The position numbers and the translations under genes are program-made. DNA of 29,430 nt, taken from the NCBI GenBank assembly GCA_041568895.1, contig JBFFYZ010000001.1, forward strand, positions 1-29,430, in the 5' to 3' direction. Each line of letters starts with the position of its first letter. Within the stretch, counting starts at the first letter, position 1. Below the pieces are notes generated by a model. It did not search any database. It saw only the letters and a list, made by a program, of their open reading frames with translations, and was not told where the DNA came from. Positions 576 to 28,844 of this stretch are shown here, piece by piece. The stretch comes from Nitrospiraceae bacterium (GTDB taxonomy: Bacteria; Nitrospirota; Nitrospiria; Nitrospirales; Nitrospiraceae).

Positions 576-1235
576 ATGAAAAGCGGCGCGCTACGGATCC
601 TCCGCGCTCTCCTCATATTGGCCCTGTTGACCGCCTGGCTGGTGCCGGTTGCCCCGGCTGCCGCGGAGAACGTCGTTGAAGTCCCGGTGTTGGCCGCCTT
701 AAAAGCGAACAACAAAGGGGTCTTTGAGGTCATGCTGGTCTGGTGGGACCAAAAACCCGAGCCGATCCCCATTGCGCTCCGCTGGCTCGATGGCGGAGTC
801 ACACTCAAGCAATCCCACCTTGGCGCCATGGCAGACGCGTTTAACTTTGCCGTCGCCCACACGCCCGCGCAGCTCCATACCGGCACCGTGTCTGTCCAAG
901 GCGTAGCCTACCTCCCGACCAGTACCGACGGTCCCAGCGCCGGCGCGACAATGGCGGTAGGCTTCGTCGCGGTCCTCAAGGGGGAGAGCATTATCCGGGG
1001 AATCGCGTTGACCGGAACCATTCAACCAGACGGCCGGATCGGCCCCGTCGGCGCCATACCGGACAAGGTTCGGGCCGCCGCGAGGGAGGGCTATCGGACC
1101 GTTCTGATTCCGCAGGGACAGCTCCACAGCCCCGAATGGAACCTCGGCAGCCTGGCCCTGGAACTCAACATCACGGTCAAGGAGGTCGAGACGGTAGCAG
1201 AAGCGTATGAACTGATGACCGGGCGCCGAATGTGA
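576..1235 (+). CDS. Secreted stand-alone S16 (Lon C-terminal) Ser-Lys dyad peptidase
   Basis: Signal peptide MKSGALRILRALLILALLTAWLVPVAPAAA; DGPSAG motif; ALTGTI..DGRIGPVGAIPDK with Lys 43 residues after the Ser, as in E. coli Lon S679/K722; SD GGAGGTG. Confidence 0.85.
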   Translation: MKSGALRILRALLILALLTAWLVPVAPAAAENVVEVPVLAALKANNKGVFEVMLVWWDQKPEPIPIALRWLDGGVTLKQSHLGAMADAFNFAVAHTPAQLHTGTVSVQGVAYLPTSTDGPSAGATMAVGFVAVLKGESIIRGIALTGTIQPDGRIGPVGAIPDKVRAAAREGYRTVLIPQGQLHSPEWNLGSLALELNITVKEVETVAEAYELMTGRRM

Positions 1236-1772: not shown

Positions 1773-2237
1773 TCAGGGACGGGCAAAGTCATCCTCGTCA
1801 TCATCGAGCTCTTCCGGCTTATCGAGAAAATCGGCGTCGGTTTCGTCATCATCCAGCGCCATGTCCTCAGCCATCTCATCCTCTTCCGGCAGGTCTTCGG
1901 GCAGCGCGATATCCTCCTCCATCTCCTCCGGCGCCAGGTCGACGTCGCCGACCCTGGACGGGCGCGTATCGCCCGGTCGAGCCTTCTTGGCCTCCATGGG
2001 TGCGCCCGCCTTTTTGGCCGCCGGGGCCTTACGGGGAGAAGCTGTGGCCCGGCCCGCCTTCTTCATGCCCTTCACCTTCCGCTTTGCCGATTTCGACCGG
2101 GAGGGTTTCCGCGCCTTGGTGGATTTCTTTTTCGAGCCCTTTTTCATTTTTCGCTTAGCCGATTTTTTCCCCTTGGCCTTGCGTTTGGCGGCCGACCGCC
2201 CGGCTCGTTTCGTCGCTTTCTTGCGTTTTTTCGCCAT
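1773..2237 (-). CDS. Low-complexity protein with Lys/Arg/Ala-rich (histone H1-like) N-terminus and Asp/Glu-rich C-terminus
   Basis: MAKKRKKATKRAGRSAAKRKAKGKK... then ...PEEMEEDIALPEDLPEEDEMAEDMALDDDETDADFLDKPEELDDDEDDF; strong SD GGAGAGGAGGGGAGG upstream. Confidence 0.8.
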   Translation of the reverse strand: MAKKRKKATKRAGRSAAKRKAKGKKSAKRKMKKGSKKKSTKARKPSRSKSAKRKVKGMKKAGRATASPRKAPAAKKAGAPMEAKKARPGDTRPSRVGDVDLAPEEMEEDIALPEDLPEEDEMAEDMALDDDETDADFLDKPEELDDDEDDFARP

Positions 2238-2370: not shown

Positions 2371-3375
2371 TTAAGGTTCCACCCACACATTGATGAAGGC
2401 CGGCAGGCTATCCGCCCCCTTGACCGTATCCGGCCCCTTCATGTCGGTGACACGCAATTTAAATTGTAACAGGCGTTTCCCCGAGACCTTCGGGGCGACA
2501 AAGGTGGCCCGGACCGTATTCTGGTCGAGCAACGAGACTTTGATGCCCCGGACCTGGGTCCATTCGTAGCGGAGCGGGTCGCCGTCGGGATCCAGGCTCT
2601 GCAGGGCGCTGAGGACGACCCTTGATCCGGTTTTGACGGTGGCATCCGGTCCCGCATCGGCGGTGGGAGGATGATTCGGCTCGACCTCCGCCTTGACTAC
2701 CACCTGGAGGGTACCCTGCTTCCCGCGATTCACGACCGTCAGGAAGGCTTTGCCGTTGCCCATGACCCGGACGAACCCATCAGGGAACACGTGAAGCACG
2801 TCTTCGTCCGAGGACCGATACGTGCTTCCCGCTGTGGCCCCGTTCAGCCGCCGCACCACTCCATCGGAAAACTGGCCGACGACCGGTATGTCCAGGATTT
2901 TTCCCAGCGTGTCCAGACGCCAAGGCTTCACGGCCTCGAATTCAATCCGCAGCAGATCGGCCTGAGGGTCCACTTGCACGAGAATTTCGTCAAATTCTTC
3001 CTCTTGCTGACCTAACCGACCCTTCACGATTTGGCCGATGGCGAGCAAGCGCATGCGGCCCATGGCTTGCACGGGAACCGTCAGCAGGCCCCCGTACGGG
3101 GGTGTAGCCGACGATGAGGCCACAAGAGCGGGCTCAGCCTGCTGCCTGCCAAGTGGCTCCTCTCCCTGTCGGTACCAGTAGTACTCCACCTGCCTCACGC
3201 CTGCCTGATCCCCAATGTCCACCCTCACCTCAACCTGCTGCCCTGAACGCAGGGTCGCCCCCTCCTGCGGTGCAGTCATGTTCAACGCCTGGGTTCCACG
3301 AGGGCACAACAGGACCCCCACCAGGACGAGGAGGCTGAGGCATACTGGTCGATGTCTTGATACCATTACTATCAT
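2371..3375 (-). CDS. Exported Ig-like/PKD (REJ/K319-like) domain protein
   Basis: Signal peptide (RHRPVCLSLLVLVGVLLCPRGTQA); C-terminal NHPPTADAGPD...SLDPDGDPLRYEWTQ...ATFVAP...FKLRVTD motif. Start is ambiguous (ATG at 3390, 3375 or 3366). Confidence 0.8.
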   Translation of the reverse strand: MIVMVSRHRPVCLSLLVLVGVLLCPRGTQALNMTAPQEGATLRSGQQVEVRVDIGDQAGVRQVEYYWYRQGEEPLGRQQAEPALVASSSATPPYGGLLTVPVQAMGRMRLLAIGQIVKGRLGQQEEEFDEILVQVDPQADLLRIEFEAVKPWRLDTLGKILDIPVVGQFSDGVVRRLNGATAGSTYRSSDEDVLHVFPDGFVRVMGNGKAFLTVVNRGKQGTLQVVVKAEVEPNHPPTADAGPDATVKTGSRVVLSALQSLDPDGDPLRYEWTQVRGIKVSLLDQNTVRATFVAPKVSGKRLLQFKLRVTDMKGPDTVKGADSLPAFINVWVEP

Positions 3376-3643
3376 CCGGTACCACGTCATTGGCTGACTC
3401 CGAAACAGGGGCCCTGAGACAGCGGTCTCTTTCCGGGACCGCACGTTGGCCGGGGAGTATACCAAGGGCTCTCCAATGGTTCTACCAAAAGGACAGTCTT
3501 CCACTTCGGGCAGATCCAGCTGCGCCACCGAGGCTGCCCGTCTCTCTCTTGAGGGCCCCGGTCGAGAATGTACGGCCCACAGCTGCAGGCACTAGAGGGA
3601 ATTCCAATGGATCCTTCGAAGACAATAATAAAAAAATTCTTAA

Positions 3644-3656
3644 AATCAAAAGGTTG
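3644..3656 (+). promoter_or_regulatory. IHF-consensus site in the divergent promoter region
   Basis: AATCAAAAGGTTG matches WATCAANNNNTTR exactly and follows an A/T tract (3624-3643). Confidence 0.5.
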
Positions 3657-3675
3657 CAGAATCTCTGTCAAGGTG

Positions 3676-3704
3676 TTGTTGAGGGGCCAAATCCTTGATA
3701 AAGT
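3676..3704 (+). promoter_or_regulatory. Putative sigma70 promoter (extended -10) for the cupredoxin cluster
   Basis: TTGTTG(3676-81)-N17-TAAAGT(3699-3704) with TGn extension; ATG at 3711. Confidence 0.45.
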
Positions 3705-3710
3705 ATACGT

Positions 3711-4154
3711 ATGGTCGACCGGAAAAATGCTTTGAAAGCGATTCAGCTTCCCAGTGATTCGAGGCCCAAACAGTCCTCTTTCGTGGCCCGCCTGGCCCTG
3801 GCCATCCTGGCAGGTGGGGTGGTGCTGTGGGGCTGGTCCGGTGAGGCGTCCCCGCCTTCTTTCCGGATCATCATGGAAAGCCGGTCACCCTACTACGAGC
3901 CTCCGCTGGCCCGGGTGAAAACGGGGTTCCCTATTCGATGGGAAAATCCAACGGCCACCGTCCATACCGTGACCCATGAGGACTGTCTGTTCGGGGTAAC
4001 CTGCATGTTTGACTCCGGATCCGTGGCCCCTGGGGCCAGCTATACGCTGCCCGGCCTTCCGCCGGGACAATATCCCTACCAATGTCGGCTGCACCCGATC
4101 ATGCGGGGCGTCATCACGGTGGAAGAGGCCGCGACGCTTCCTTCCGAGACCTAG
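3711..4154 (+). CDS. Cupredoxin (plastocyanin/azurin-like type-1 copper protein) with N-terminal signal/anchor
   Basis: H85 (VHTVT) and C125-x2-H128-x2-M131 (YQCRLHPIMRG); hydrophobic segment at residues 28-42. Confidence 0.9.
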   Translation: MVDRKNALKAIQLPSDSRPKQSSFVARLALAILAGGVVLWGWSGEASPPSFRIIMESRSPYYEPPLARVKTGFPIRWENPTATVHTVTHEDCLFGVTCMFDSGSVAPGASYTLPGLPPGQYPYQCRLHPIMRGVITVEEAATLPSET

Positions 4155-4259
4155 TCGTCCGCACCACGCATGTGCCTCCGAACCGTCCGCTCGCCTTCTC
4201 ACTAGCTCCGACCTAACCCAGCTTGCCTCATCCCAGTTCCTTCGTGTACCCTTTGCTCC

Positions 4260-4952
4260 ATGCTGAACCACCTCATGGACGAGCTTCAGCGGCATCCCGT
4301 CAATGCCAATCCCTTTTTCCTGGCGTTTCGGGAGCGGCCCCTCAGCCCAGAGCAATTGCAGGTCTTTATGAGGCAATACCACTACTTCTGCAAACATTTC
4401 GTCAAGGCGCTGGAAGGCCTCCTGTACCACACGCCGGTGGACCAGATGGAAATGCGCATCGAGCTGGCGAAGACGCTCCATTCCGAGTTGGGAGGAGGCG
4501 TGGCGGAACGGGCCCACATCACCCTGCTCGAACGCTTTTGCGGGATGGCGGGCTTATCCCGGGCGGAGCTCGGACGGACGGTACCGCTCCCGGAGGTGGA
4601 TGCCTATCTGACCCTGCTGCACACCCTGTTCGTGGAATCCCATTATCTGGTGGCTCTTGGCGCGGAGCTGGCCGTGGAGGTCACCGCGGGTTCCGAATTT
4701 CAATACCTGTATCCCGGGCTGAAGCAATACCCCGCCTTTCAGGAACAGGACCTGGAATTTTTCAAGCTTCATCTGACCGAGGAGCCATGCCACAGCGCAT
4801 GGCTTCTGGAAGCGGTGCAGCGGACGGCGCACACGGAGGAGGAGCAGGCCTTGGTACAAGCCGGCGCCCGGGAAACGGCCGACGGCTGGCTCCGCTTTTG
4901 GGACGGCCTGTATCGGGCAGTATTCCCGGCGGAGGTGCCCGCCTCGGCATAA
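4260..4952 (+). CDS. Heme-oxygenase-like (TenA/PqqC/CADD superfamily) iron-containing redox enzyme
   Basis: Putative diiron ligand set E76, H86, E140, H171, E175, H178, paralleling CADD E81/H88/E142/H174/D178/H181; N-terminal HP...PF..F..L...QL..F..QY pattern. Confidence 0.85.
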   Translation: MLNHLMDELQRHPVNANPFFLAFRERPLSPEQLQVFMRQYHYFCKHFVKALEGLLYHTPVDQMEMRIELAKTLHSELGGGVAERAHITLLERFCGMAGLSRAELGRTVPLPEVDAYLTLLHTLFVESHYLVALGAELAVEVTAGSEFQYLYPGLKQYPAFQEQDLEFFKLHLTEEPCHSAWLLEAVQRTAHTEEEQALVQAGARETADGWLRFWDGLYRAVFPAEVPASA

Positions 4953-5009
4953 CCTCCAGCCCTCCCGGGCGAAACGGAGGCGCAGGGAACGATCGGTGAC
5001 GGAGACGTG

Positions 5010-6494
5010 ATGGAACGAACCGCAGCTCCCCACGAGTTACTGGACTTGACCGAGGACGTGCTCCGGCTGCGCGCCTGGAAAATGCCGGACATGGTCGTGT
5101 ATCAACAGACGACGGACGAATGGTGGTTGGCGCCGCTCGACAACGACTTACCCTTGATCCGCCTAAACCGGGTGGGCATCGACCTGCTCATGGCCCTGGA
5201 CGGGAACGTCACCGTGGAATGGCTCCTGGAGAAATTCGGGAAACGGGTCTGCGGGCCCGATGGAGAGACCGGCCGGTGGCATCTGGAACGCTGGGCCCTG
5301 CCCCGGTATTCCCTCTGCTACTACGGATCCGAACCAACCACGGGAGGACGGCACGGCGCCCAATGGGATCTCCTCCTGCAGCAGGTCCGGGAGCGGTGGT
5401 CCGGCCAGGAAGGGTTCGAAGGGGAAGAGCACCTGTCGGAGTTCCACCGGCATGACATCACCAAACAGGACGGCCACTTTGACAATATCGAAACCACGGT
5501 GTCCCACCTGTTTCGCGAACCGAGCGCGGCCCTTCAAGGGCTGACCTACGGTCGCCTGCTGGCGCGGCACCTCCGCCGGTTAGGGTGGTTGTCTCCCAAG
5601 CCCAAGACCATTCTCGAGGTGGGCGCCGGACTGGGGTACGTCTCCCGCGACCTCGGGCTGGAGCTCAGCCCGCAGGAGCGGCAGGGCATCAGCTATCTCT
5701 ATCTGGACATCACCAGGCCGTTCCTGGATTCCCAGCTCGCCCGTGGGCAAGAAGGCGGGTGGCAGTGCGGGGCCCTCCAGGGCAACGCCGAGCGGTTGCC
5801 GTTCCGGGACGCCAGCGTGGACCTCGTCATCGACAACGAGAATCTGGCGGATCTGACTCCGGTGCAGCTGAGCCCCGGGGAGGTGCATAACCGCCAAGGC
5901 CGAACGCCGCTACACCAGGAGGCGGTGGACTGGATGCACCGGTTGCGATTGCCCCTGGATCAGACCCTCCCCGACGAATTCATCTTCAACCTGGGTCCGA
6001 TCCGGTTTCTGGCGGAGCTGTGGCGGGTCCTCCGGCCCGGCGGCCGGGCCATCCTGATCGAGTTCGGCATCGAAAGCGGGTGGCCGGCACCCGTGAAACT
6101 GCCGGGCCATACCGAATACGAGGTCCAGTACAGCCATCTCCGCCACACGGCGCGCTGGCTGGGATTTCAGGAGCAGTATTTCGCGCTGCCTCAATTTTTG
6201 GTCATCCGGCCGGATACCCGCCTCCTCTGCACCGGCGCGGTCTATACGATCCAGCGGTTTTGCGAAGGCGAAGGTAAACCCTTCGCGGTGCGGGCCTATA
6301 CCGAAGCCGAGTTGGATCAGGCGTTGGGCGGCATGCTGCCCAAACTGCTCGGCTGCCACTACCATGACATCATTGATCCGGCCTGGTTCGGCCTGTGGGA
6401 CTTCAAGGTGCTGCTGGTGGAAAAGCCGGGGGGAGCCACCCTCCCCGCCTTCCGTGAGGCGAAAGGCTTCCGCTGGTACGCCCAGGGCCGGTGA
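5010..6494 (+). CDS. Class I SAM-dependent methyltransferase with N-terminal PqqD/RRE-like domain
   Basis: Motif I ILEVGAGLG; NAERLPFRDASVDLVI; VLRPGGRAILIE; N-terminal LIRLNRVGIDLLMALDGNVTVEWLLEKF. GTG 5007/ATG 5010 with SD GGAG at 5001. Confidence 0.85.
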   Translation: MERTAAPHELLDLTEDVLRLRAWKMPDMVVYQQTTDEWWLAPLDNDLPLIRLNRVGIDLLMALDGNVTVEWLLEKFGKRVCGPDGETGRWHLERWALPRYSLCYYGSEPTTGGRHGAQWDLLLQQVRERWSGQEGFEGEEHLSEFHRHDITKQDGHFDNIETTVSHLFREPSAALQGLTYGRLLARHLRRLGWLSPKPKTILEVGAGLGYVSRDLGLELSPQERQGISYLYLDITRPFLDSQLARGQEGGWQCGALQGNAERLPFRDASVDLVIDNENLADLTPVQLSPGEVHNRQGRTPLHQEAVDWMHRLRLPLDQTLPDEFIFNLGPIRFLAELWRVLRPGGRAILIEFGIESGWPAPVKLPGHTEYEVQYSHLRHTARWLGFQEQYFALPQFLVIRPDTRLLCTGAVYTIQRFCEGEGKPFAVRAYTEAELDQALGGMLPKLLGCHYHDIIDPAWFGLWDFKVLLVEKPGGATLPAFREAKGFRWYAQGR

Positions 6495-6535: not shown

Positions 6536-7501
6536 TCAGCGAGGAACAGCGCGATGCCGGCGGGCGAGGTGGATCAAGAGCCCTTCGCGGAGGCCGAGGT
6601 CGCTCACGAGGCAGTCGCGAAACCCGAAGCCGTTCATCACGCCCAGCAGAATTAACGTCCCTCCCACGATGAGATCCTCCCGGTCGGGCTCCAACCCCGG
6701 GATGGCTCGCCGCTCGGCACTGGTCCGCGACAGCAGCGCATCTTCCAGCGTGCGGACGGCGTCCAATGTCAGCCGATAATGGTGGATCCGGGCTTTATCA
6801 TAGATTTCCAGCCGGAGGTCCATGGCCGCCAGGGTGGTAATGGTGCCGGCGGTCCCGACCAGACTCGTCCCATGAACGTCTCCGACCACCGTTCGGGCTT
6901 TCTCGAGTTGGGTCCGAATGAAGGTCCGCGCAGCTTCCAATTCCTCTCTGGTGGGAGGGTCGTTGCGGAGCAGCCGTTCCGTCAATCGGACCACTCCCAG
7001 CTCAAGGGACAGGACCACCGGCTGGGACCCCTTCCGGCCCAGGATGAACTCCGTGCTGCCGCCGCCGATATCCAGCCCCAGCACATCGGAGACGCCGCGC
7101 GGTAAACCGGATCGAATGCCCAGCAGGGTCCGGCGAGCCTCTTCATCGCCGGTGAGGACCTCCACCTCGAAGCCGGTCCCGCGCCGAATTTGGTCGAGAA
7201 AGGCGTCCCGGTTGGCCGCGTCCCGAACCGCACTGGTGGCCACCACCGACACCGCCTCCGGCTTGAAATCTTGGATCACCCGACGCCATTCGCGCAGAGT
7301 GTCCAGGACCCGGGACATGGCGGAGTCCTTGAGGCGTCCCTGCCCGTCCACCCCTTCGCCGAGCCGCAGGATTCGGCGTTCGCCGTGCAATTCCTCCAGC
7401 TGTTCGTCCGCAGACACCCTGCCGACCAGCAACCGACAGGTCAGTGTGCCGATGTCAATTCCCGCCAGCACCGGCCCCTTGGTGCCCTGGTCTCGTCCCA
7501 T
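6536..7501 (-). CDS. Ppx/GppA family phosphatase (short form)
   Basis: AGIDIGTLTCRL, VATSAVRDAAN, GDEEA, LDIGGGSTE, LGVVRLTE, GLREG motifs; start placed at ATG 7501. Confidence 0.92.
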   Translation of the reverse strand: MGRDQGTKGPVLAGIDIGTLTCRLLVGRVSADEQLEELHGERRILRLGEGVDGQGRLKDSAMSRVLDTLREWRRVIQDFKPEAVSVVATSAVRDAANRDAFLDQIRRGTGFEVEVLTGDEEARRTLLGIRSGLPRGVSDVLGLDIGGGSTEFILGRKGSQPVVLSLELGVVRLTERLLRNDPPTREELEAARTFIRTQLEKARTVVGDVHGTSLVGTAGTITTLAAMDLRLEIYDKARIHHYRLTLDAVRTLEDALLSRTSAERRAIPGLEPDREDLIVGGTLILLGVMNGFGFRDCLVSDLGLREGLLIHLARRHRAVPR

Positions 7502-7508
7502 CTCCGGG

Positions 7509-7832
7509 CTAGTCCCCGCTTCTCGCGAGGTCCATCTCGGCCTGGAGCTTGGCCCGCTCCGCACGGAGGGTACAGGCTCGATCGAGGTCTTGGGCCATTT
7601 CGGGATCCGACAGAATCCGGTCGATCGGTTCACGGCGTTGGTGCATTTCGAGGGCCCGCTCACCGATGTCCCGGCAGAGGTCCTTGACCTGGGTATCCAG
7701 GGTGCGCACGGCCAGCCGCAGGCGGAGCAATTCCGTCTCCTCTAGAGCACGATTGGCGGCCTTGGCGGTCCCGAACCGCAATCGGGCCCACCCGGCCTTC
7801 AAATCATGCCGAACTTGCTGCAAGATGCCCAT
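7509..7832 (-). CDS. Hypothetical helical/coiled-coil protein
   Basis: 107 aa between recG and ppx in the same orientation; SD GGGAGGGG. Confidence 0.7.
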   Translation of the reverse strand: MGILQQVRHDLKAGWARLRFGTAKAANRALEETELLRLRLAVRTLDTQVKDLCRDIGERALEMHQRREPIDRILSDPEMAQDLDRACTLRAERAKLQAEMDLARSGD

Positions 7833-18916: not shown

Positions 18917-20200
18917 TCACTCGTGGCGACGCAGGGCCGGCGCTTGAGGCACCGTGCTCGAAGGCGTCGCCGAACCGGCGGAGACTTCACCACGAGGAAC
19001 CTCCCCGTTGGAGGCCCCTCCACGCCCCCGCTGCTCCAAGATCGTGATGATAATCACAATCAACGCGGCCTGGGTCAAGAGCATAATGGCCTCGGTTGTG
19101 TCGGCCTTGCGGAGGACGATGGCGGCCAACCCCAGGGTGATGGTCAACGCAAATATCATCGCCACGCTGGCCTTGCGGTTCCCCAACGCCCGCTCCAACC
19201 GGTGGTGAAGGTGGTCCTTCCCGACGTAATCGATCCACTCCTTCACCGTGGAGACCTTGCCGGTCAGGACCCGCTCCACGGAGATGTGAATCATATCGTA
19301 AATCAAAATGCCGAAAATCAACAGGGGGTTGCTGAAGGAGACGATCGGATTGTAGTTGGCCCAATTGCCCTTCACGGCCAGGCAGGCCAGCGTGAAGCCC
19401 AAAAAGGTGGAGCCGCCATCCCCCAGAAAGATCCGGGCCTGCCCCCGCCGGCGAAAATTATAGGGAAGAAACCCCATGCCGGCCCCGATGATGGCCACGG
19501 CCACCCAGCCCAGCCCTGCCTGGTAGGTATCAAAGGCGACGACCCCCATGAAAAACGCGATCAGGATCGCCAGCCCGGACGCGAGCCCGTCCATCCCGTC
19601 GAAGAAGTTGAACGCGTTCGTAATCCCGACGATCCAGAGAAGGGTCAGCGCCACGTTGATCGTGGTTCCCCAGGGCCCGTCCGGGAACAGCGTCAGGACT
19701 TTCCCTGAATAAATAACCATCCCCGCCCCAACCAACTGGACGGCCAGCTTGACCCAGGCCGGAAGGTCCCGGGCATCGTCGATGATGCCGACGACCAGCA
19801 GCAGGGATCCGGCAAAGAGGATCGCCACCATCCAATCGGCCAGAATGGAATTGACCAGCAGGGCGACCACGAAGCCCAGGAACACCGCGGCACCCCCGAT
19901 CCTCGGCGTCGGCGCCCGATGGATTTTTCGCTCGGCCGGTTGATCGACCAGTCCCGCGGCCAGCCCGAATCGGATGGCGACCGGGGTCAGGGCGAAGGAC
20001 GTGGCGAAGGAGACCAAAAGGATATACAGCCACCGGACTCCCTCGAAGATGAACACCTCTCGGACCCAGGGAATCAACAGAAGCGCGAGCGCGCCGAACG
20101 CGCCCAGGGAGGGCCAGGACACCCAGCGTTCCACCACAGGCCGGGACTCCTCCGTCCCCGTGTGAAGCCCCGACGACAATGATCCAGCTTCGGGTGGCAT
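18917..20200 (-). CDS. MraY/WecA-like polyprenyl-phosphate sugar-1-phosphate transferase (GT family 4)
   Basis: DQPAERKIH..TPRIGG, GIIDD, NAFNFFDGMDGLA, FLGDGGS, KDHLHHRL. Start ATG 20200 overlaps the upstream TAA (TAATG). Confidence 0.92.
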   Translation of the reverse strand: MPPEAGSLSSGLHTGTEESRPVVERWVSWPSLGAFGALALLLIPWVREVFIFEGVRWLYILLVSFATSFALTPVAIRFGLAAGLVDQPAERKIHRAPTPRIGGAAVFLGFVVALLVNSILADWMVAILFAGSLLLVVGIIDDARDLPAWVKLAVQLVGAGMVIYSGKVLTLFPDGPWGTTINVALTLLWIVGITNAFNFFDGMDGLASGLAILIAFFMGVVAFDTYQAGLGWVAVAIIGAGMGFLPYNFRRRGQARIFLGDGGSTFLGFTLACLAVKGNWANYNPIVSFSNPLLIFGILIYDMIHISVERVLTGKVSTVKEWIDYVGKDHLHHRLERALGNRKASVAMIFALTITLGLAAIVLRKADTTEAIMLLTQAALIVIIITILEQRGRGGASNGEVPRGEVSAGSATPSSTVPQAPALRRHE

Positions 20201-21291
20201 TAGGGCAACTCCTCGCAGAGGGCCTCCGCGGTCGCCCGCACTTCCTCCTCGGTCATCGACGGATAGATGGGTACCGAGAGGGCGGTGTGGCTGGCTTCCT
20301 CGCTGGCCGGAAATCCCTCCAGCTTCAGGTATTGATGCAGGGCCTGAAATACCGGGCGCCGGCATTGGATCCCTCGCCGTTCCAGGTTGGCGAGGACCTG
20401 TTCCAACGGTGGCTGTAAGGTTCCCGGGTCGTCTTTCGCCGCCGGTAACCTGACCACGTACCGGAAAAAAACGTGCGTCCGTCCACGGGGGACCTGCGGC
20501 AACCCCAGTCCCGTACTGCCCAACAGGCGGGTGAAGGCTTCGGCGATGGCGGACCGTTTCGCCAGGAAGGACGGCAGGCGGGCGACCTGGCGCAAACCCA
20601 GGGCCGCCTGCAGGTCCGTCATCTTCCGATTGAAGGCGGCGGCCTCCAGGGATGGCCGCTCGTCATAATCCCGCAGCGCAGCCATCTTCTCGATCATCGC
20701 CGGGTCATTGGACAACACCATGCCCCCTTCGCCCGTGCACAGCAGTTTGGTCGCATAAAACGAACAGACCGTGGCGATGCCGACGGTCCCGACCGTTCGT
20801 CCGGCCTCCGCCGCTCCCAGCGTTTGGGCACAGTCTTCGATCAGCGGAATGCCGAACGTCTGCAATCTGGTGAGGTCGGCCGGAAGACCGAAGGGGTGCG
20901 GCACGATGATCGCCTTGGTTTTGGAGGACAGCGCCTTCCGGGCTTCCTCAGGATCGATCCCATACGTCGACGGTTGGATGTCCACGATCCGCGGCAAGGC
21001 CCCGACCCGGACCACGGCCAGCCACGGGGCGGTACAGACATAGCTGGGGAGGATGACCTCGTCCCCTTCCCCGATGCCCAAGGCCAGCAGGGCCAATTCC
21101 AGGGCGACGGATCCCGAGCCCACCGCAACGGCCCCCTTGAGGCCCATATACGCAGCCATGCTGCGCTCGAACTCCTGGACGCAGGGACCTTGGGCGACGT
21201 GGCCGGACCGGATCACTTCGGCCACGGCCTGGACCTCTTCCTCTCCAAGCGTCGGTCGGGAGTGGGGCACCATGAGCTTGCCGGCGGTCAT
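20200..21291 (-). CDS. DegT/DnrJ/EryC1/StrS PLP-dependent sugar aminotransferase
   Basis: IEDCAQTLG, SFYATK (PLP Lys), TGEGGM, N.KMTDLQAALG, LSVPIYP. Confidence 0.93.
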   Translation of the reverse strand: MTAGKLMVPHSRPTLGEEEVQAVAEVIRSGHVAQGPCVQEFERSMAAYMGLKGAVAVGSGSVALELALLALGIGEGDEVILPSYVCTAPWLAVVRVGALPRIVDIQPSTYGIDPEEARKALSSKTKAIIVPHPFGLPADLTRLQTFGIPLIEDCAQTLGAAEAGRTVGTVGIATVCSFYATKLLCTGEGGMVLSNDPAMIEKMAALRDYDERPSLEAAAFNRKMTDLQAALGLRQVARLPSFLAKRSAIAEAFTRLLGSTGLGLPQVPRGRTHVFFRYVVRLPAAKDDPGTLQPPLEQVLANLERRGIQCRRPVFQALHQYLKLEGFPASEEASHTALSVPIYPSMTEEEVRATAEALCEELP

Positions 21292-21932
21292 TGTCCGATG
21301 TTGATGAAGAGCCGCAAGGGGATGAACCCTTCCGCATGCCTGACCCGTCCCTGAATGCCGCGAAAAGTGGCGGCGGAGCGGGTGATATCCACAATGGTGG
21401 TCCCTTCAATATTCGTTTTTTTGACCTGGGAGGCATGGGCCTGGAGCGCCTGGATTTTATCCTCCAGGACCGATTCAATATCCACAAACACCGTCGGGGA
21501 AAAGTTTTGGGTCGTCGGCCCCTCATAAAACAACACATTCCTGGTGTAGCGGGTCGCGGTCACGGTGCACCCGGCCAGATTGCGGTGGTCTTGATGGGTG
21601 TCGTCCGGGAAATGCACGAAAATGAAGTGCGGGTCCACCTCCCGGACGGCCACCTCGATCTTCTGGATCAACAGCGAGTCCAGAGGAAGCTTGGTGTCCG
21701 CATAGCCCCCCCAGAAAATCTTTTCCACCTGGAGGCATTTCGCCGCCTCTTCCTGCTCCCGCTTCCGAGTGCCCCCGCCGGCCCCCTGTTCGCCTTCCGT
21801 CAGGACCATGAGGAAAATGCGGTGCCCGTTTCGGGCATACTTGATCAAGGTCCCCCCGCATCCCGCCTCGATGTCATCGGGATGGGCCCCCAGGGCCAGC
21901 ACCCGCACTGCCTTTTCATTGGTTCGTCCCAT
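21288..21932 (-). CDS. PIG-L family de-N-acetylase
   Basis: AHPDD and HQDH motifs; SD GGAGGTG before ATG 21932. Confidence 0.93.
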   Translation of the reverse strand: MGRTNEKAVRVLALGAHPDDIEAGCGGTLIKYARNGHRIFLMVLTEGEQGAGGGTRKREQEEAAKCLQVEKIFWGGYADTKLPLDSLLIQKIEVAVREVDPHFIFVHFPDDTHQDHRNLAGCTVTATRYTRNVLFYEGPTTQNFSPTVFVDIESVLEDKIQALQAHASQVKKTNIEGTTIVDITRSAATFRGIQGRVRHAEGFIPLRLFINIGQ

Positions 21933-21984
21933 TGGCACCTCCGAATCACTCCCCCGGAACTTGACGATCTCGCTATGACGCAGG

Positions 21985-22698
21985 CTATTGCGCGTTTCCT
22001 GGAATGGCACTCGAGGGCTGCCGGGCTTCGCGCAGCCTGGCCAGGGCCGAATCGCCGCAGGCAAACAGCAGATCCACTGCGGACATACCCGGCATGAACG
22101 GCTCGTAACACTGGGGGTAGACGGGATGATGAAACGCCTGCAGTTCCAATTCCACCCCCGAAGCTTGGAATCGGGGCAGGTCCATGTATTGTGTGGCTCC
22201 CGCGCCGGCCAGGTAGCGGGAGGCGCCGACAGTCCGACAGATGTCGATCAACCGTTCGGTCGGTTCCTCGCGGAGGCGCATGTCGGATGACCGCTGCACC
22301 GGTGTGGTGATGCCGAACGCCTGGAGCAGCCACCGCAGGATGGCCAGGTTCAACTCGGCCAACTGGTCCCAGGGTCGGCCATAGATGGTGCGCAGCCCCT
22401 CGAGGTACCACCGGGCAAAGGCCGCCTTTTGGTAATGCATCTCCAACGCACGCAGATGTTTGGATCGCCATTCCGTCTCCGGGTTGATCCGGACCTGGTC
22501 CACCTGCTGCCCGAACTTGTGGAGAACGGGCACGGTAAGCCACTGCCATCCCTGAGAGGTTCGGATACGATTCCGGTTCTGCCACTCGTTTTTTTTGAAC
22601 TGGACGGAATCCAGGACCACAAACAGGTCCGCCTGGTCGATTTTATCCAGATACCCCAGCCAGGGCAGGTACTGCGGTTGGTGAATGGTGACCCGCAT
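21985..22698 (-). CDS. WbqC-like protein
   Basis: IHQPQYLPWLGYLDKI, DSVQFKKNEWQNRNRI, YLAG..A..Y, MSAVDLLF. Confidence 0.92.
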   Translation of the reverse strand: MRVTIHQPQYLPWLGYLDKIDQADLFVVLDSVQFKKNEWQNRNRIRTSQGWQWLTVPVLHKFGQQVDQVRINPETEWRSKHLRALEMHYQKAAFARWYLEGLRTIYGRPWDQLAELNLAILRWLLQAFGITTPVQRSSDMRLREEPTERLIDICRTVGASRYLAGAGATQYMDLPRFQASGVELELQAFHHPVYPQCYEPFMPGMSAVDLLFACGDSALARLREARQPSSAIPGNAQ

Positions 22699-26802: not shown

Positions 26803-26959
26803 GTGACGGGTGACAAGTGCTGCGCCTCAATGATGAATGCTAAACGCGGATGCTGAATATTACGCTGCGAAAGCCCTTCCATTTATCACTCAGCCCTCAT
26901 CGTTCATGGTTATGGGTTCACCCCTTGCTCGTCACGCGTCACGCGTCACGATTCACGGG
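26803..26959. repeat. Nested inverted heptamer repeat arrays in the asnB/GT intergenic region
   Basis: Left: GTGACGG-GTGACAA (26803-16), then TGATGAA/TGCTAAA/TGCTGAA. Right: TCA in 7-nt phase at 26890, 26897, 26904, 26918, 26932, 26939, 26946, 26953 (TCACGCG-TCACGCG-TCACGAT-TCACGGG). Confidence 0.7.
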
Positions 26960-28844
26960 TTTGGTGCCAGAGCTCCAGCACCAACAGGGCATACAGCTGG
27001 TCGGCAAAATTTCGTCGGCCATCCTCGTGTTCCCTGATCAGCCACTGCACATACTCGGGCCGGACATAGCCGCGGCGCCGGATCGTATCTTCCGAGAGCA
27101 AATCATGGACCATCTCCCGAAGATCCTCCCGCAGCCAGCGTGCCACCGGCACCTGAAAACCAAACTTCGATCGGCCCAGAATCGTCTGCGGGAGCAGCGC
27201 CTTGAGGGCCCGCCGCATGAAGCCTTTCAACTTCCAGCCTTGGAATCGGACTCGGGCTGGCACCGCCAGGGCCAGGGCCAACAGCTCATGGTCACAAAAC
27301 GGCACGCGTAGCTCCAGCGAATGCGCCATGCTCAACCGGTCCCCCATCCGGAGGAGATCATCGGGAAGGTAGGTCTGAAGGTCCAGCCCCATGGCCCGGT
27401 CGGAGGGGTCCTCGGAAGGCCAGATCTGAAACAGGTCGGGATAGGTACGATCCAACATCGCGTTTTGGGCGTAGGGGTACAATCCAGGCGTGAAGATCTC
27501 CCCCTCCCGCTCCGGTGGCAAAAAGGTCATCCACCTTGTGTATTGCTCCGCCAGAGACCGGTGACCGTCCCGAAGGAACCGTCTCAGCCGGCCGGCATAG
27601 TTTTGACTCCCGGCGCCTTCCGAGAGCCAGGGGGACAGGGTCGCAGCCGTCCAGGCGCGCAGCCCACGAGGCACCACCGCGTACCGGGCGGCCGTGCGGA
27701 TGCCGAGGTACCGGGGGTACCCTCCGAATAATTCATCCCCTCCGATTCCCGAGAGCGCCACCGTCACCGACCGCCTGGCGACTTGTGACACCAGATAGGT
27801 CGGGATCGCGGAGGAATCCGCGAAGGGTTCTCCCATCGCGGCCACGATACGCGGCAACAGCGTCACGGCATCCGGTCGAAGCCGTTCTTCCGTGTGCACG
27901 GTGCCGAAATGATCGGCGAGCAGACGGGCCGCTGCCAACTCGTTGTAAGACTCGTCCGCCTGGGCTTCGTACCCGATCGAGAAGCTCTTGATGGGCTGAT
28001 CCGACAGGGTCCGCATCATGGCCAGGATCGCGCCGGAGTCCAAGCCTCCCGACAGAAACAAGCCCAACGGGACGTCACTCACCAAATGGTGGCGGACCGT
28101 GTCTTTCAGGGATTCCAGGAACCGTTCAGCCAGGTCCTGAACCCTGACCTCCGGCTGCTCCCGCCACGCCTTGTCCAGCCGAAAGTACCGCCTGGTTTCC
28201 AGGCGGCCTTGCCGGATCTGCACCCATTCGCCGGCCCGGACTTCCTGGATTCCCTGAAAGATCGTGCCGGTCCCCGGCACGTACAGCCTGGTCAGATACT
28301 GGGCGATGGCTTCCGGACGAAGACTGGGTGGGGACATGCCGGCGACGAGCGCCGGCAGCTCGGAGGCAAACATCAGGGCCCCGGTTCCAGAGTTCCCGCC
28401 GGACGACAGGGCATAGTACAGCGGCTTGATTCCCAAGCGGTCGCGGAACAGAAACAGCGTGTCCCGTGCTCGATCCCAGAGCGCATAGGCGAACATGCCG
28501 CGCAACCGATGAACGCCTTCTTCTCCCTCCTGCTCATACAAGTGGACCAGGACTTCGGTGTCGCAGTGGGTCGTGAAGCGGTGGCCTTTGCTGATGAGCT
28601 CTGCCCGGAGTTCACGGTAGTTGTAAATTTCCCCGTTGAGGGCGACCCAGACCGTCCCTGTTTCGTTGGTCATGGGTTGGTGGCCACCCTCCGGATCGAT
28701 GACCTGCAGCCGACGGACTCCCAGCATGACCCCGGGCTCGAGATGCCGTCCCTCCTCATCGGGACCTCGCGGAACCAGCCGGCGCAACATGCGCTCCAGG
28801 ATTTTTTCGTCCCCTTCCCCGACCATCCCGCAAATTCCGCACAT
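26946..28844 (-). CDS. asnB: Asparagine synthase (glutamine-hydrolysing)-like amidotransferase, probably sugar-modifying
   Basis: N-terminal MCGICG (catalytic Cys2), RGPD, NGEIYNY, RDRLGIKPLYY, LSGGLDS, SGIGGDELFGGY. Confidence 0.93.
   Translation of the reverse strand: MCGICGMVGEGDEKILERMLRRLVPRGPDEEGRHLEPGVMLGVRRLQVIDPEGGHQPMTNETGTVWVALNGEIYNYRELRAELISKGHRFTTHCDTEVLVHLYEQEGEEGVHRLRGMFAYALWDRARDTLFLFRDRLGIKPLYYALSSGGNSGTGALMFASELPALVAGMSPPSLRPEAIAQYLTRLYVPGTGTIFQGIQEVRAGEWVQIRQGRLETRRYFRLDKAWREQPEVRVQDLAERFLESLKDTVRHHLVSDVPLGLFLSGGLDSGAILAMMRTLSDQPIKSFSIGYEAQADESYNELAAARLLADHFGTVHTEERLRPDAVTLLPRIVAAMGEPFADSSAIPTYLVSQVARRSVTVALSGIGGDELFGGYPRYLGIRTAARYAVVPRGLRAWTAATLSPWLSEGAGSQNYAGRLRRFLRDGHRSLAEQYTRWMTFLPPEREGEIFTPGLYPYAQNAMLDRTYPDLFQIWPSEDPSDRAMGLDLQTYLPDDLLRMGDRLSMAHSLELRVPFCDHELLALALAVPARVRFQGWKLKGFMRRALKALLPQTILGRSKFGFQVPVARWLREDLREMVHDLLSEDTIRRRGYVRPEYVQWLIREHEDGRRNFADQLYALLVLELWHQTRES

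Follow-up and report, generated by a model that had tools for sequence, protein, structure and literature searches.

The locus studied here raises the question whether three adjacent genes of a Nitrospiraceae bacterium, encoding a cupredoxin, a heme-oxygenase-like diiron oxidase (HDO) and a methyltransferase (MT) dependent on S-adenosylmethionine (SAM), form one system, and what kind of substrate their products modify. The genes occupy positions 3711-6494 of a 29,430-nucleotide stretch, hereafter the window (GCA_041568895.1, contig JBFFYZ010000001.1, positions 1-29,430, forward strand), and the sequence runs containing this stretch were found to be marine and sediment DNA metagenomes only. The initial annotation proposed a compact three-gene system that oxidises and methylates a peptide or protein encoded elsewhere. 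We find that the HDO and MT genes form a genuine module of two genes that is conserved and uncharacterised, consisting of a tailoring enzyme guided by what we take to be a recognition element (RRE) of the type known from ribosomally synthesised peptides that are modified after translation (RiPPs) together with an HDO, and not the proposed three-gene system.

Distribution and linkage in Nitrospirales

The three open reading frames (ORFs) are all on the plus strand, at 3711-4154 (147 aa, cupredoxin), 4260-4952 (230 aa, HDO) and 5007-6494 (495 aa, MT; alternative ATG start at 5010). They are separated by 105 nt and 54 nt, respectively. Orthologs were sought in 41 related genomes assigned to four families, f1 to f4, and in a separate even sample of the phylum Nitrospirota. 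The MT was present in 34 of the 41 relatives, the carriers belonging to f1, f2 and f3, and in none of the five f4 genomes. The phylum sample gave a similar picture: 39 of 40 f1 and f2 genomes had the MT, while the 160 genomes from other families all lacked it. MT orthologs are 61-76% identical over their full length. The MT is an order-specific, near-universal core gene of Nitrospirales. In four genomes (G115:C195:58408-58809; G176:C20:40414-40623; G218:C1:3790202-3790555; G018:C5:33872-33946), short copies of the MT C-terminus, some with in-frame stops, were observed about 0.8-4.5 kb 3' of the intact gene; they look like remnants of a tandem duplication.

Of the 41 relatives, 15 carry an HDO ortholog at a threshold of E below 1e-79. 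Within the phylum sample it was present in 9 of 10 genomes of one f2 genus (g26) and in none of 28 f1 genomes. In total, 19 distinct genomes have an HDO ortholog, and in 15 of them its gene was located directly upstream of the MT gene on the same strand, namely in five f1 genomes (G000, G010, G017, G008 and G019), nine f2 genomes and one f3 genome (G032). None of the flanking genes of the window were kept around the pair in f3, and some were kept in f2 on the downstream side only. In both of these families the HDO and MT genes either abut or share 4 nt. Linkage of HDO and MT, as initially annotated, thus extends over three families with differing flanks. The four unlinked HDO copies (G007, G013, G015 and G021) formed one supported clade (99/98), which fits a single relocation or duplication, and nothing informative was found among their neighbours. 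The HDO tree, which was built without two paralog outgroup rows, and the MT tree both recovered the f2 clade and left the rest unresolved. This is consistent with co-inheritance of HDO and MT. The HDO is dispensable for MT function, because many complete genomes hold the MT without it, and a compact, self-contained module is therefore not supported.

The adjacency of the cupredoxin gene could indicate that cupredoxin, HDO and RRE-fused MT constitute a single system, in which the cupredoxin would be either a redox partner or the modified target. All three genes run in one direction, with short distances between them and a single AT-rich spacer ahead of them, the cupredoxin gene is located directly 5' of the MT gene or of the HDO-MT pair in nearly all f1 genomes, and the same trio was found in G010 and G017. 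However, the f1 region is collinear throughout (LonS-orf155-basic protein-PKD-cupredoxin-(HDO)-MT-Ppx-orf107-RecG-L28), and since the whole region from LonS to RecG is collinear the adjacency in f1 is explained by descent. In f2 the cupredoxin ortholog was located between genes for a GT2 glycosyltransferase and an ABC-2 transporter, hundreds of kb from the MT gene, and no ortholog was found in f3, where the MT occurs with or without HDO. Cupredoxin, HDO and MT were found together only in G000, G010 and G017 (3 of 41 genomes). Furthermore, the cupredoxin domain is predicted to be exported, while HDO and MT carry no signal sequence, and the N-terminal tail of the cupredoxin varies among orthologs. 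On this distribution we rejected the cupredoxin as a member of the unit. It is probably an f1-specific neighbour outside the module, and we consider a single three-gene system, as the initial annotation had it, very improbable. The conserved unit is the HDO-MT pair with the MT as hub.

The cupredoxin itself (3711..4154, plus strand) matched Pfam Cupredoxin_1 with an E of 7e-6 and 26.5 bits, just below the cut-off of 27, and its top NCBIfam match was amicyanin TIGR02657 (E 1.7e-6; score 28.4 relative to an equivalog cut-off of 110.2). The type-1 ligand set H85, C125, H128 and M131, with the spacing C-x2-H-x2-M, was invariant in 12 of 12 orthologs, as was the Cys pair C92 and C98, and the ligands bear out the annotation as a type-1 copper protein. 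A charged stretch followed by a hydrophobic segment, read from the N-terminal sequence, suggests that the protein is exported or membrane-anchored.

Two genes specific to f3 precede the MT gene or the HDO-MT pair in that family (L012:7667-8762, L023:5498-5974 and L024:5371-5682). They encode a protein of 103-130 aa and a protein of 158-170 aa with four Cys pairs, the latter overlapping the next gene by 13 nt. These upstream genes (103 aa; 158 aa with CxxC and a weak DUF7455 match) were considered as universal partners and rejected, since they occur in f3 only.

No precursor, protease or exporter gene was found adjoining the MT or the pair in the window and 20 Nitrospirales loci, and their surroundings do not have the composition of a RiPP cluster. 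This agrees with the earlier suggestion that the substrate is not encoded beside the genes.

The N-terminal domain and catalytic region of the MT

The N-terminal domain of the MT (about residues 22-105; 5070..5321, plus strand) is not readily recognised. Residues 1-180 had no Pfam match of their own, and the window domain did not match PF05402 at E up to 10 (residues 1-127), nor did the whole MT at E up to 0.1. Seven of 28 homologous N-terminal domains did match PF05402, with a best E of 3.2e-7. An hhalign comparison of the N-domain profile with that of stand-alone PqqD proteins, which adjoin homologous MTs, gave 86% probability and an E of 5e-6 over 45 columns. The domain has the consensus L-N..G..LL...DG...V..L in 28 family members. 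Three strands followed by three helices, the winged-helix topology, were predicted both for the full-length MT and for the isolated domain. The isolated model had a predicted local distance difference test score (pLDDT) of 64 and absolute fold scores were low; RRE domains dominated the fold matches, with those of TbiB1 and ThcOx at Foldseek ranks 1-4. Given the agreement of these four lines (consensus, PF05402 matches, profile alignment and fold) we take the domain to be RRE-like, with peptide binding as a putative function. The PqqD-like character on which the initial annotation had staked its proposal was thereby recovered. The domain, which contains many invariant residues, was found to match the catalytic core in its degree of conservation and is therefore not vestigial.

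The catalytic region (about residues 135-486; 5409..6464, plus strand) contains Methyltransf_11, a class I SAM domain, at residues 203-281 (E 3.3e-11). An AlphaFold2 model of the MT, based on a 45-sequence alignment, had a pLDDT of 88.9 and a predicted template modelling score (pTM) of 0.87. It combines a Rossmann core with the inserted and C-terminal elements specific to the MidA/NDUFAF7 family, and the nearest structures were those of protein methyltransferases, MidA followed by NTMT1. The window MT had no match to PF02636; several distant homologs (25-38% identity) did match, with E down to 5e-15. Four acidic residues, E278, D282, E352 and E370, are invariant. MidA and NDUFAF7 (COG1565, PF02636) are protein-arginine methyltransferases, and the target of NDUFAF7 is Arg85 of NDUFS2 (PMC3829151). 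A canonical COG1565 protein was found in Nitrospirales genomes as well (E 1e-60 to 1e-70), and the RRE-fused MT therefore represents a lineage separate from MidA.

Distant relatives of the MT

A family search of 1.8 billion representatives resulted in 486 MT relatives. Most of these are 440-600 aa long, match residues about 125-475 and carry N-terminal extensions of similar length, and some are fused to radical SAM/SPASM (P0136), HD or GNAT domains. All six distant-homolog contexts examined were peptide-maturation clusters, and the MT family is therefore considered to consist of RiPP-type tailoring enzymes. Loci L031, L032 and L033 contain a stand-alone PqqD, a radical SAM enzyme, ScmC, an ABC transporter and NTP_transf_5; in L032 and L033 the PqqD gene is located directly 5' of the MT gene with a 4-nt overlap. 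Loci L034-L037 contain a SynChlorMet-like cassette with an ScmF-like fusion of radical SAM enzyme and MT, ScmE, ScmD (PqqD), ScmC, an ABC exporter and a signal-peptidase-like gene. The gene order is MT-PqqD-radical SAM/SPASM-42-aa ORF in L050 and 50-aa ORF-Asn_synthase-PhyH-MT in the lasso-like L051, where the PhyH oxygenase gene is directly upstream of the MT gene. A further lasso-like locus, that of P0185, has the MT near PqqD and Asn_synthase. An oxygenase gene followed by an MT gene is consequently also seen beyond Nitrospirales, the oxygenase there being of another kind (PhyH, L051). The wider MT family of SynChlorMet-like and lasso-like clusters appears to be uncharacterised.

The 841-aa protein P0136 (L034:6001-8526), encoded within the SynChlorMet-like cassette, joins an ScmF-like radical SAM/SPASM maturase to a MidA-like methyltransferase, and no description of a fusion of this type was found in the literature searched. 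Beside the lasso-like cluster of L051 we observed a copper-handling gene set encoding MerR, cytochrome c, CopC, CopD and a multicopper oxidase (L051:4693-8214). A cluster of PqqD, HprK-like, fatty-acid hydroxylase and NTP_transf_5 genes, a set that also surrounds distant MT homologs, was found 12-16 kb from the MT gene in two Nitrospira genomes (L042:4001-8699 in G001 and G011:C1:658927-661541). The same set is about 490 kb from the MT gene in G024 and was not found in G028.

The contexts of the distant homologs would match a classical secreted RiPP pathway, in which the Nitrospirales pair tailors a leader-bearing precursor from a distant cluster, for example a lasso-like or radical-SAM one, and the PqqD cluster of G001 and G011 also speaks for it. 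However, a near-universal MT with 61-76% identity is atypical of natural-product tailoring genes, and neither protease nor exporter was found linked to the MT in the Nitrospirales loci. The position of the PqqD cluster in G024 also argues against such a pathway, as does the streamlined complete f2 genome G028, which has MT and HDO and gave no match to a stand-alone PqqD or to NTP_transf_5. We therefore regard a secreted RiPP as a decidedly unlikely product of the pair.

The diiron oxidase

The HDO (4260..4952, plus strand) belongs to the PF14518 family (E 7.7e-22; 78.4 bits relative to a cut-off of 28.9) and also matched PF03070 (TENA/THI-4/PQQC) with an E of 1.1e-9. Its nearest solved relatives were BesC (7twa) and a 4-aminobenzoate (pABA) synthase (9pj4), both with an E of about 5e-10, and CADD/CT610 was likewise among the relatives, which places it in the BesC/CADD branch. 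Seven residues aligned to the ligand positions of BesC and CADD, E52, E76, H86, E140, H171, E175 and H178, were invariant in 18 orthologs, and the full HDO metal-ligand set noted initially was thus confirmed. Tyr27 and Lys152 of CADD (C. trachomatis numbering), its sacrificial residues, align with the invariant F20 and with L150 of the HDO. Lacking these residues, the HDO is no self-sacrificial enzyme, and its substrate must be an external one. We rejected a CADD-type self-sacrificial pABA synthase on these replacements and on a TIGR04305 score of 54.6 relative to a cut-off of 200, and PqqC on a TIGR02111 score of 16.3 relative to a cut-off of 240. No pqq genes (pqqA/B/E) were found among the neighbours of the block. 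All 120 matches listed in a homolog search with the HDO were at least 56% identical, the named ones were from Nitrospirota, and no HDO-MT pairing outside Nitrospirota was found among them.

A second HDO paralog, 32-39% identical to that of the window, was observed on contig C39 of G000 (L038:4810-6598) and at L040:6312-10671. The gene following it encodes a Nitrospirota-specific protein of 437-449 aa that has no Pfam match, contains the SAM-motif-I-like sequence LLELGAGDL and has methyltransferase-like language-model neighbours; MoxR AAA+ and DUF58 genes are next. The paralog and this protein may represent a second oxidase-plus-methyltransferase-like pair.

BesC acts on a free amino acid, 4-Cl-lysine. 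By analogy, the HDO might convert a free amino acid or metabolite and the MT methylate the product, in which case the RRE-like domain would be vestigial, structural or used for docking. Such a small-molecule pathway is in agreement with BesC and pABA synthases being the best sequence matches of the HDO, with class I methyltransferases of this size often acting on metabolites, with no precursor gene being found nearby, and with the annotation of MT orthologs as UbiE-like by the Joint Genome Institute (JGI). On the other hand, conservation of the N-terminal domain equals that of the catalytic core, protein methyltransferases are the closest in structure, the distant relatives are found in PqqD/radical SAM and lasso-like peptide clusters, and most genomes keep the MT without an HDO. 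On balance we find a small-molecule pathway unlikely.

Proposed function of the HDO-MT pair

With moderate confidence we propose that the MT is an RRE-guided peptide or protein methyltransferase with the HDO as optional partner, acting on a substrate encoded elsewhere. The PqqD/RRE-like domain would hold a ribosomally made substrate by an extended segment, and the MidA/NDUFAF7-like SAM domain would methylate this substrate. The methyl acceptor would most likely be a nitrogen (Arg, Lys or the N-terminus), which is our best guess because of the nearest structural relatives and the four invariant acidic residues. The HDO, as an O2-activating diiron oxidase, would most likely hydroxylate or otherwise oxidise the same substrate in an optional co-tailoring step. 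A conserved cellular protein or peptide is favoured as substrate over a secreted natural product, because the MT is near-universal and strongly conserved, because precursor, protease and exporter genes are not linked to it, and because G028 keeps MT and HDO without the PqqD and NTP_transf_5 matches. Nitrite oxidoreductase was considered as target by co-occurrence of its subunit NxrB. NxrB-like matches were found in 10 of 24 f1, 6 of 6 f2 and 0 of 5 f3 genomes, and since f3 has the MT without an NxrB-like match this target received no support.

Several observations weigh against an RRE-guided enzyme with an optional oxidase. No substrate candidate emerged, and in the Nitrospirales loci examined no precursor ORF adjoins the genes. 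Neither PF05402 nor PF02636 is matched by the window MT, whose winged-helix domain could have a different role, for instance in docking a protein partner. Most f1 genomes, complete ones included, keep the MT without HDO, and BesC, the closest solved relative of the HDO, acts on a free amino acid and not on a peptide. A prediction of an MT-HDO complex scored 0.00, which is evidence neither way.

A bolder proposal, which we offer as a long shot, is that the RRE-fused MidA-like MT, in some lineages together with the HDO, marks a conserved core protein of Nitrospirales by methylation, either alone or combined with hydroxylation. In complex I maturation NDUFAF7 is responsible for Arg methylation and NDUFAF5 for Arg hydroxylation (PMC3829151, PMC3750175). 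If the proposal is true, the pair would be a bacterial, RRE-guided counterpart of this process, and RiPP-type substrate recognition would have been recruited for the maturation of housekeeping proteins.

No description of a pathway of HDO and RRE-fused MT was found in the literature searched, in agreement with the initial annotation, which recognised none. The MT is lineage-specific, almost universally kept and strongly conserved, yet its annotation does not go beyond that of a generic methylase. A domain for peptide recognition, of the type usual in natural-product pathways, is combined in it with the fold typical of protein-arginine methyltransferases, and in some lineages the MT is coupled to an O2-activating diiron enzyme. 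Discovery of the substrate could reveal a new post-translational modification in organisms responsible for nitrite oxidation and complete ammonia oxidation worldwide, or new RiPP tailoring chemistry, in which an HDO would have a peptide as substrate and a methyltransferase of the MidA type would work with an RRE.

Flanking regions of the block

The block is preceded by an AT-rich spacer (3600..3710, plus strand) and closed by a convergent exopolyphosphatase (Ppx/GppA) gene outside the module (6536..7663, minus strand; PF02541 E 9.7e-66, TIGR03706 E 1.8e-77). The layout of three co-oriented genes, AT-rich spacer and convergent end therefore stands as annotated. The promoter within the spacer is statistically unsecured, since the scan found one sigma-70-like site (3619-3646, 9 of 12 matches) compared to 0.6 expected in shuffled sequences. 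Terminator-like hairpins were not above shuffles in the terminator scan (4 found, 3.1 expected).

Upstream of the block is a divergent gene for a PKD-domain protein (2371-3528, minus strand). Two further window genes are conserved in the collinear f1 block around the MT, one encoding a basic/acidic disordered protein (1773-2237, minus strand) and one encoding a Lon-protease-domain protein with a signal peptide (576-1235, plus strand). A glycan locus at 18917-22064 and 26946-28844 of the window, 12-22 kb from the MT gene, encodes Glycos_transf_4, a DegT aminotransferase, PIG-L, two GT1 proteins and Asn_synthase. PIG-L and Glycos_transf_4 are also encoded directly 3' of the distant MT homolog in L031, possibly by coincidence.

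Comparison with known systems

The cupredoxin has the H...C-x2-H-x2-M pattern, the cupredoxin domain and the N-terminal hydrophobic segment, putatively for export or anchoring, in common with amicyanin-type copper proteins. It differs from these by the extra invariant Cys pair C92/C98 and by a score far under the equivalog cut-off, and it is unlinked to the MT outside f1.

With BesC and the CADD-type synthases, which are stand-alone HDOs (7twa, 9pj4, 8va9 and 1rcw), the HDO shares the Pfam family PF14518/PF03070 and the aligned ligand set. Its equivalog scores are far below the respective cut-offs (54.9 relative to 500 for BesC and 54.6 relative to 200 for CADD). There is also a likeness to biosynthesis of pyrroloquinoline quinone (PQQ), as an HDO of the TENA/THI-4/PQQC family followed by a gene beginning with a PqqD-like domain echoes pqqC-pqqD, which are adjacent or fused in that pathway. 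PqqC is not known to use a metal cofactor, whereas the HDO carries metal ligands.

Pairs of oxygenase and methyltransferase are also found in RiPP clusters, and in L051 the distant MT homolog follows PhyH and a lasso-cyclase-like Asn_synthase. Unlike such pairs, the Nitrospirales pair is without an adjoining cyclase, radical SAM enzyme, precursor, protease or exporter.

The N-terminal domain of the MT shares the three-strand, three-helix topology and the LN..G..LL...DG..tV..L pattern with RREs of the PqqD family (TbiB1 5v1u, PqqD 5sxy, CteB 5wgg, NisB 4wd9 and LynD 4v1t), and its profile matches that of stand-alone PqqD. In contrast to the known RREs, the window domain has no direct Pfam PqqD match, gives weak structural scores and has an additional extension that is conserved and contains Cys residues (C82, C104). 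Compared to MidA/NDUFAF7 (5ztz, 4g67 and 1zkd), the window MT fails to match PF02636 and possesses the N-terminal RRE-like domain, which MidA does not have.

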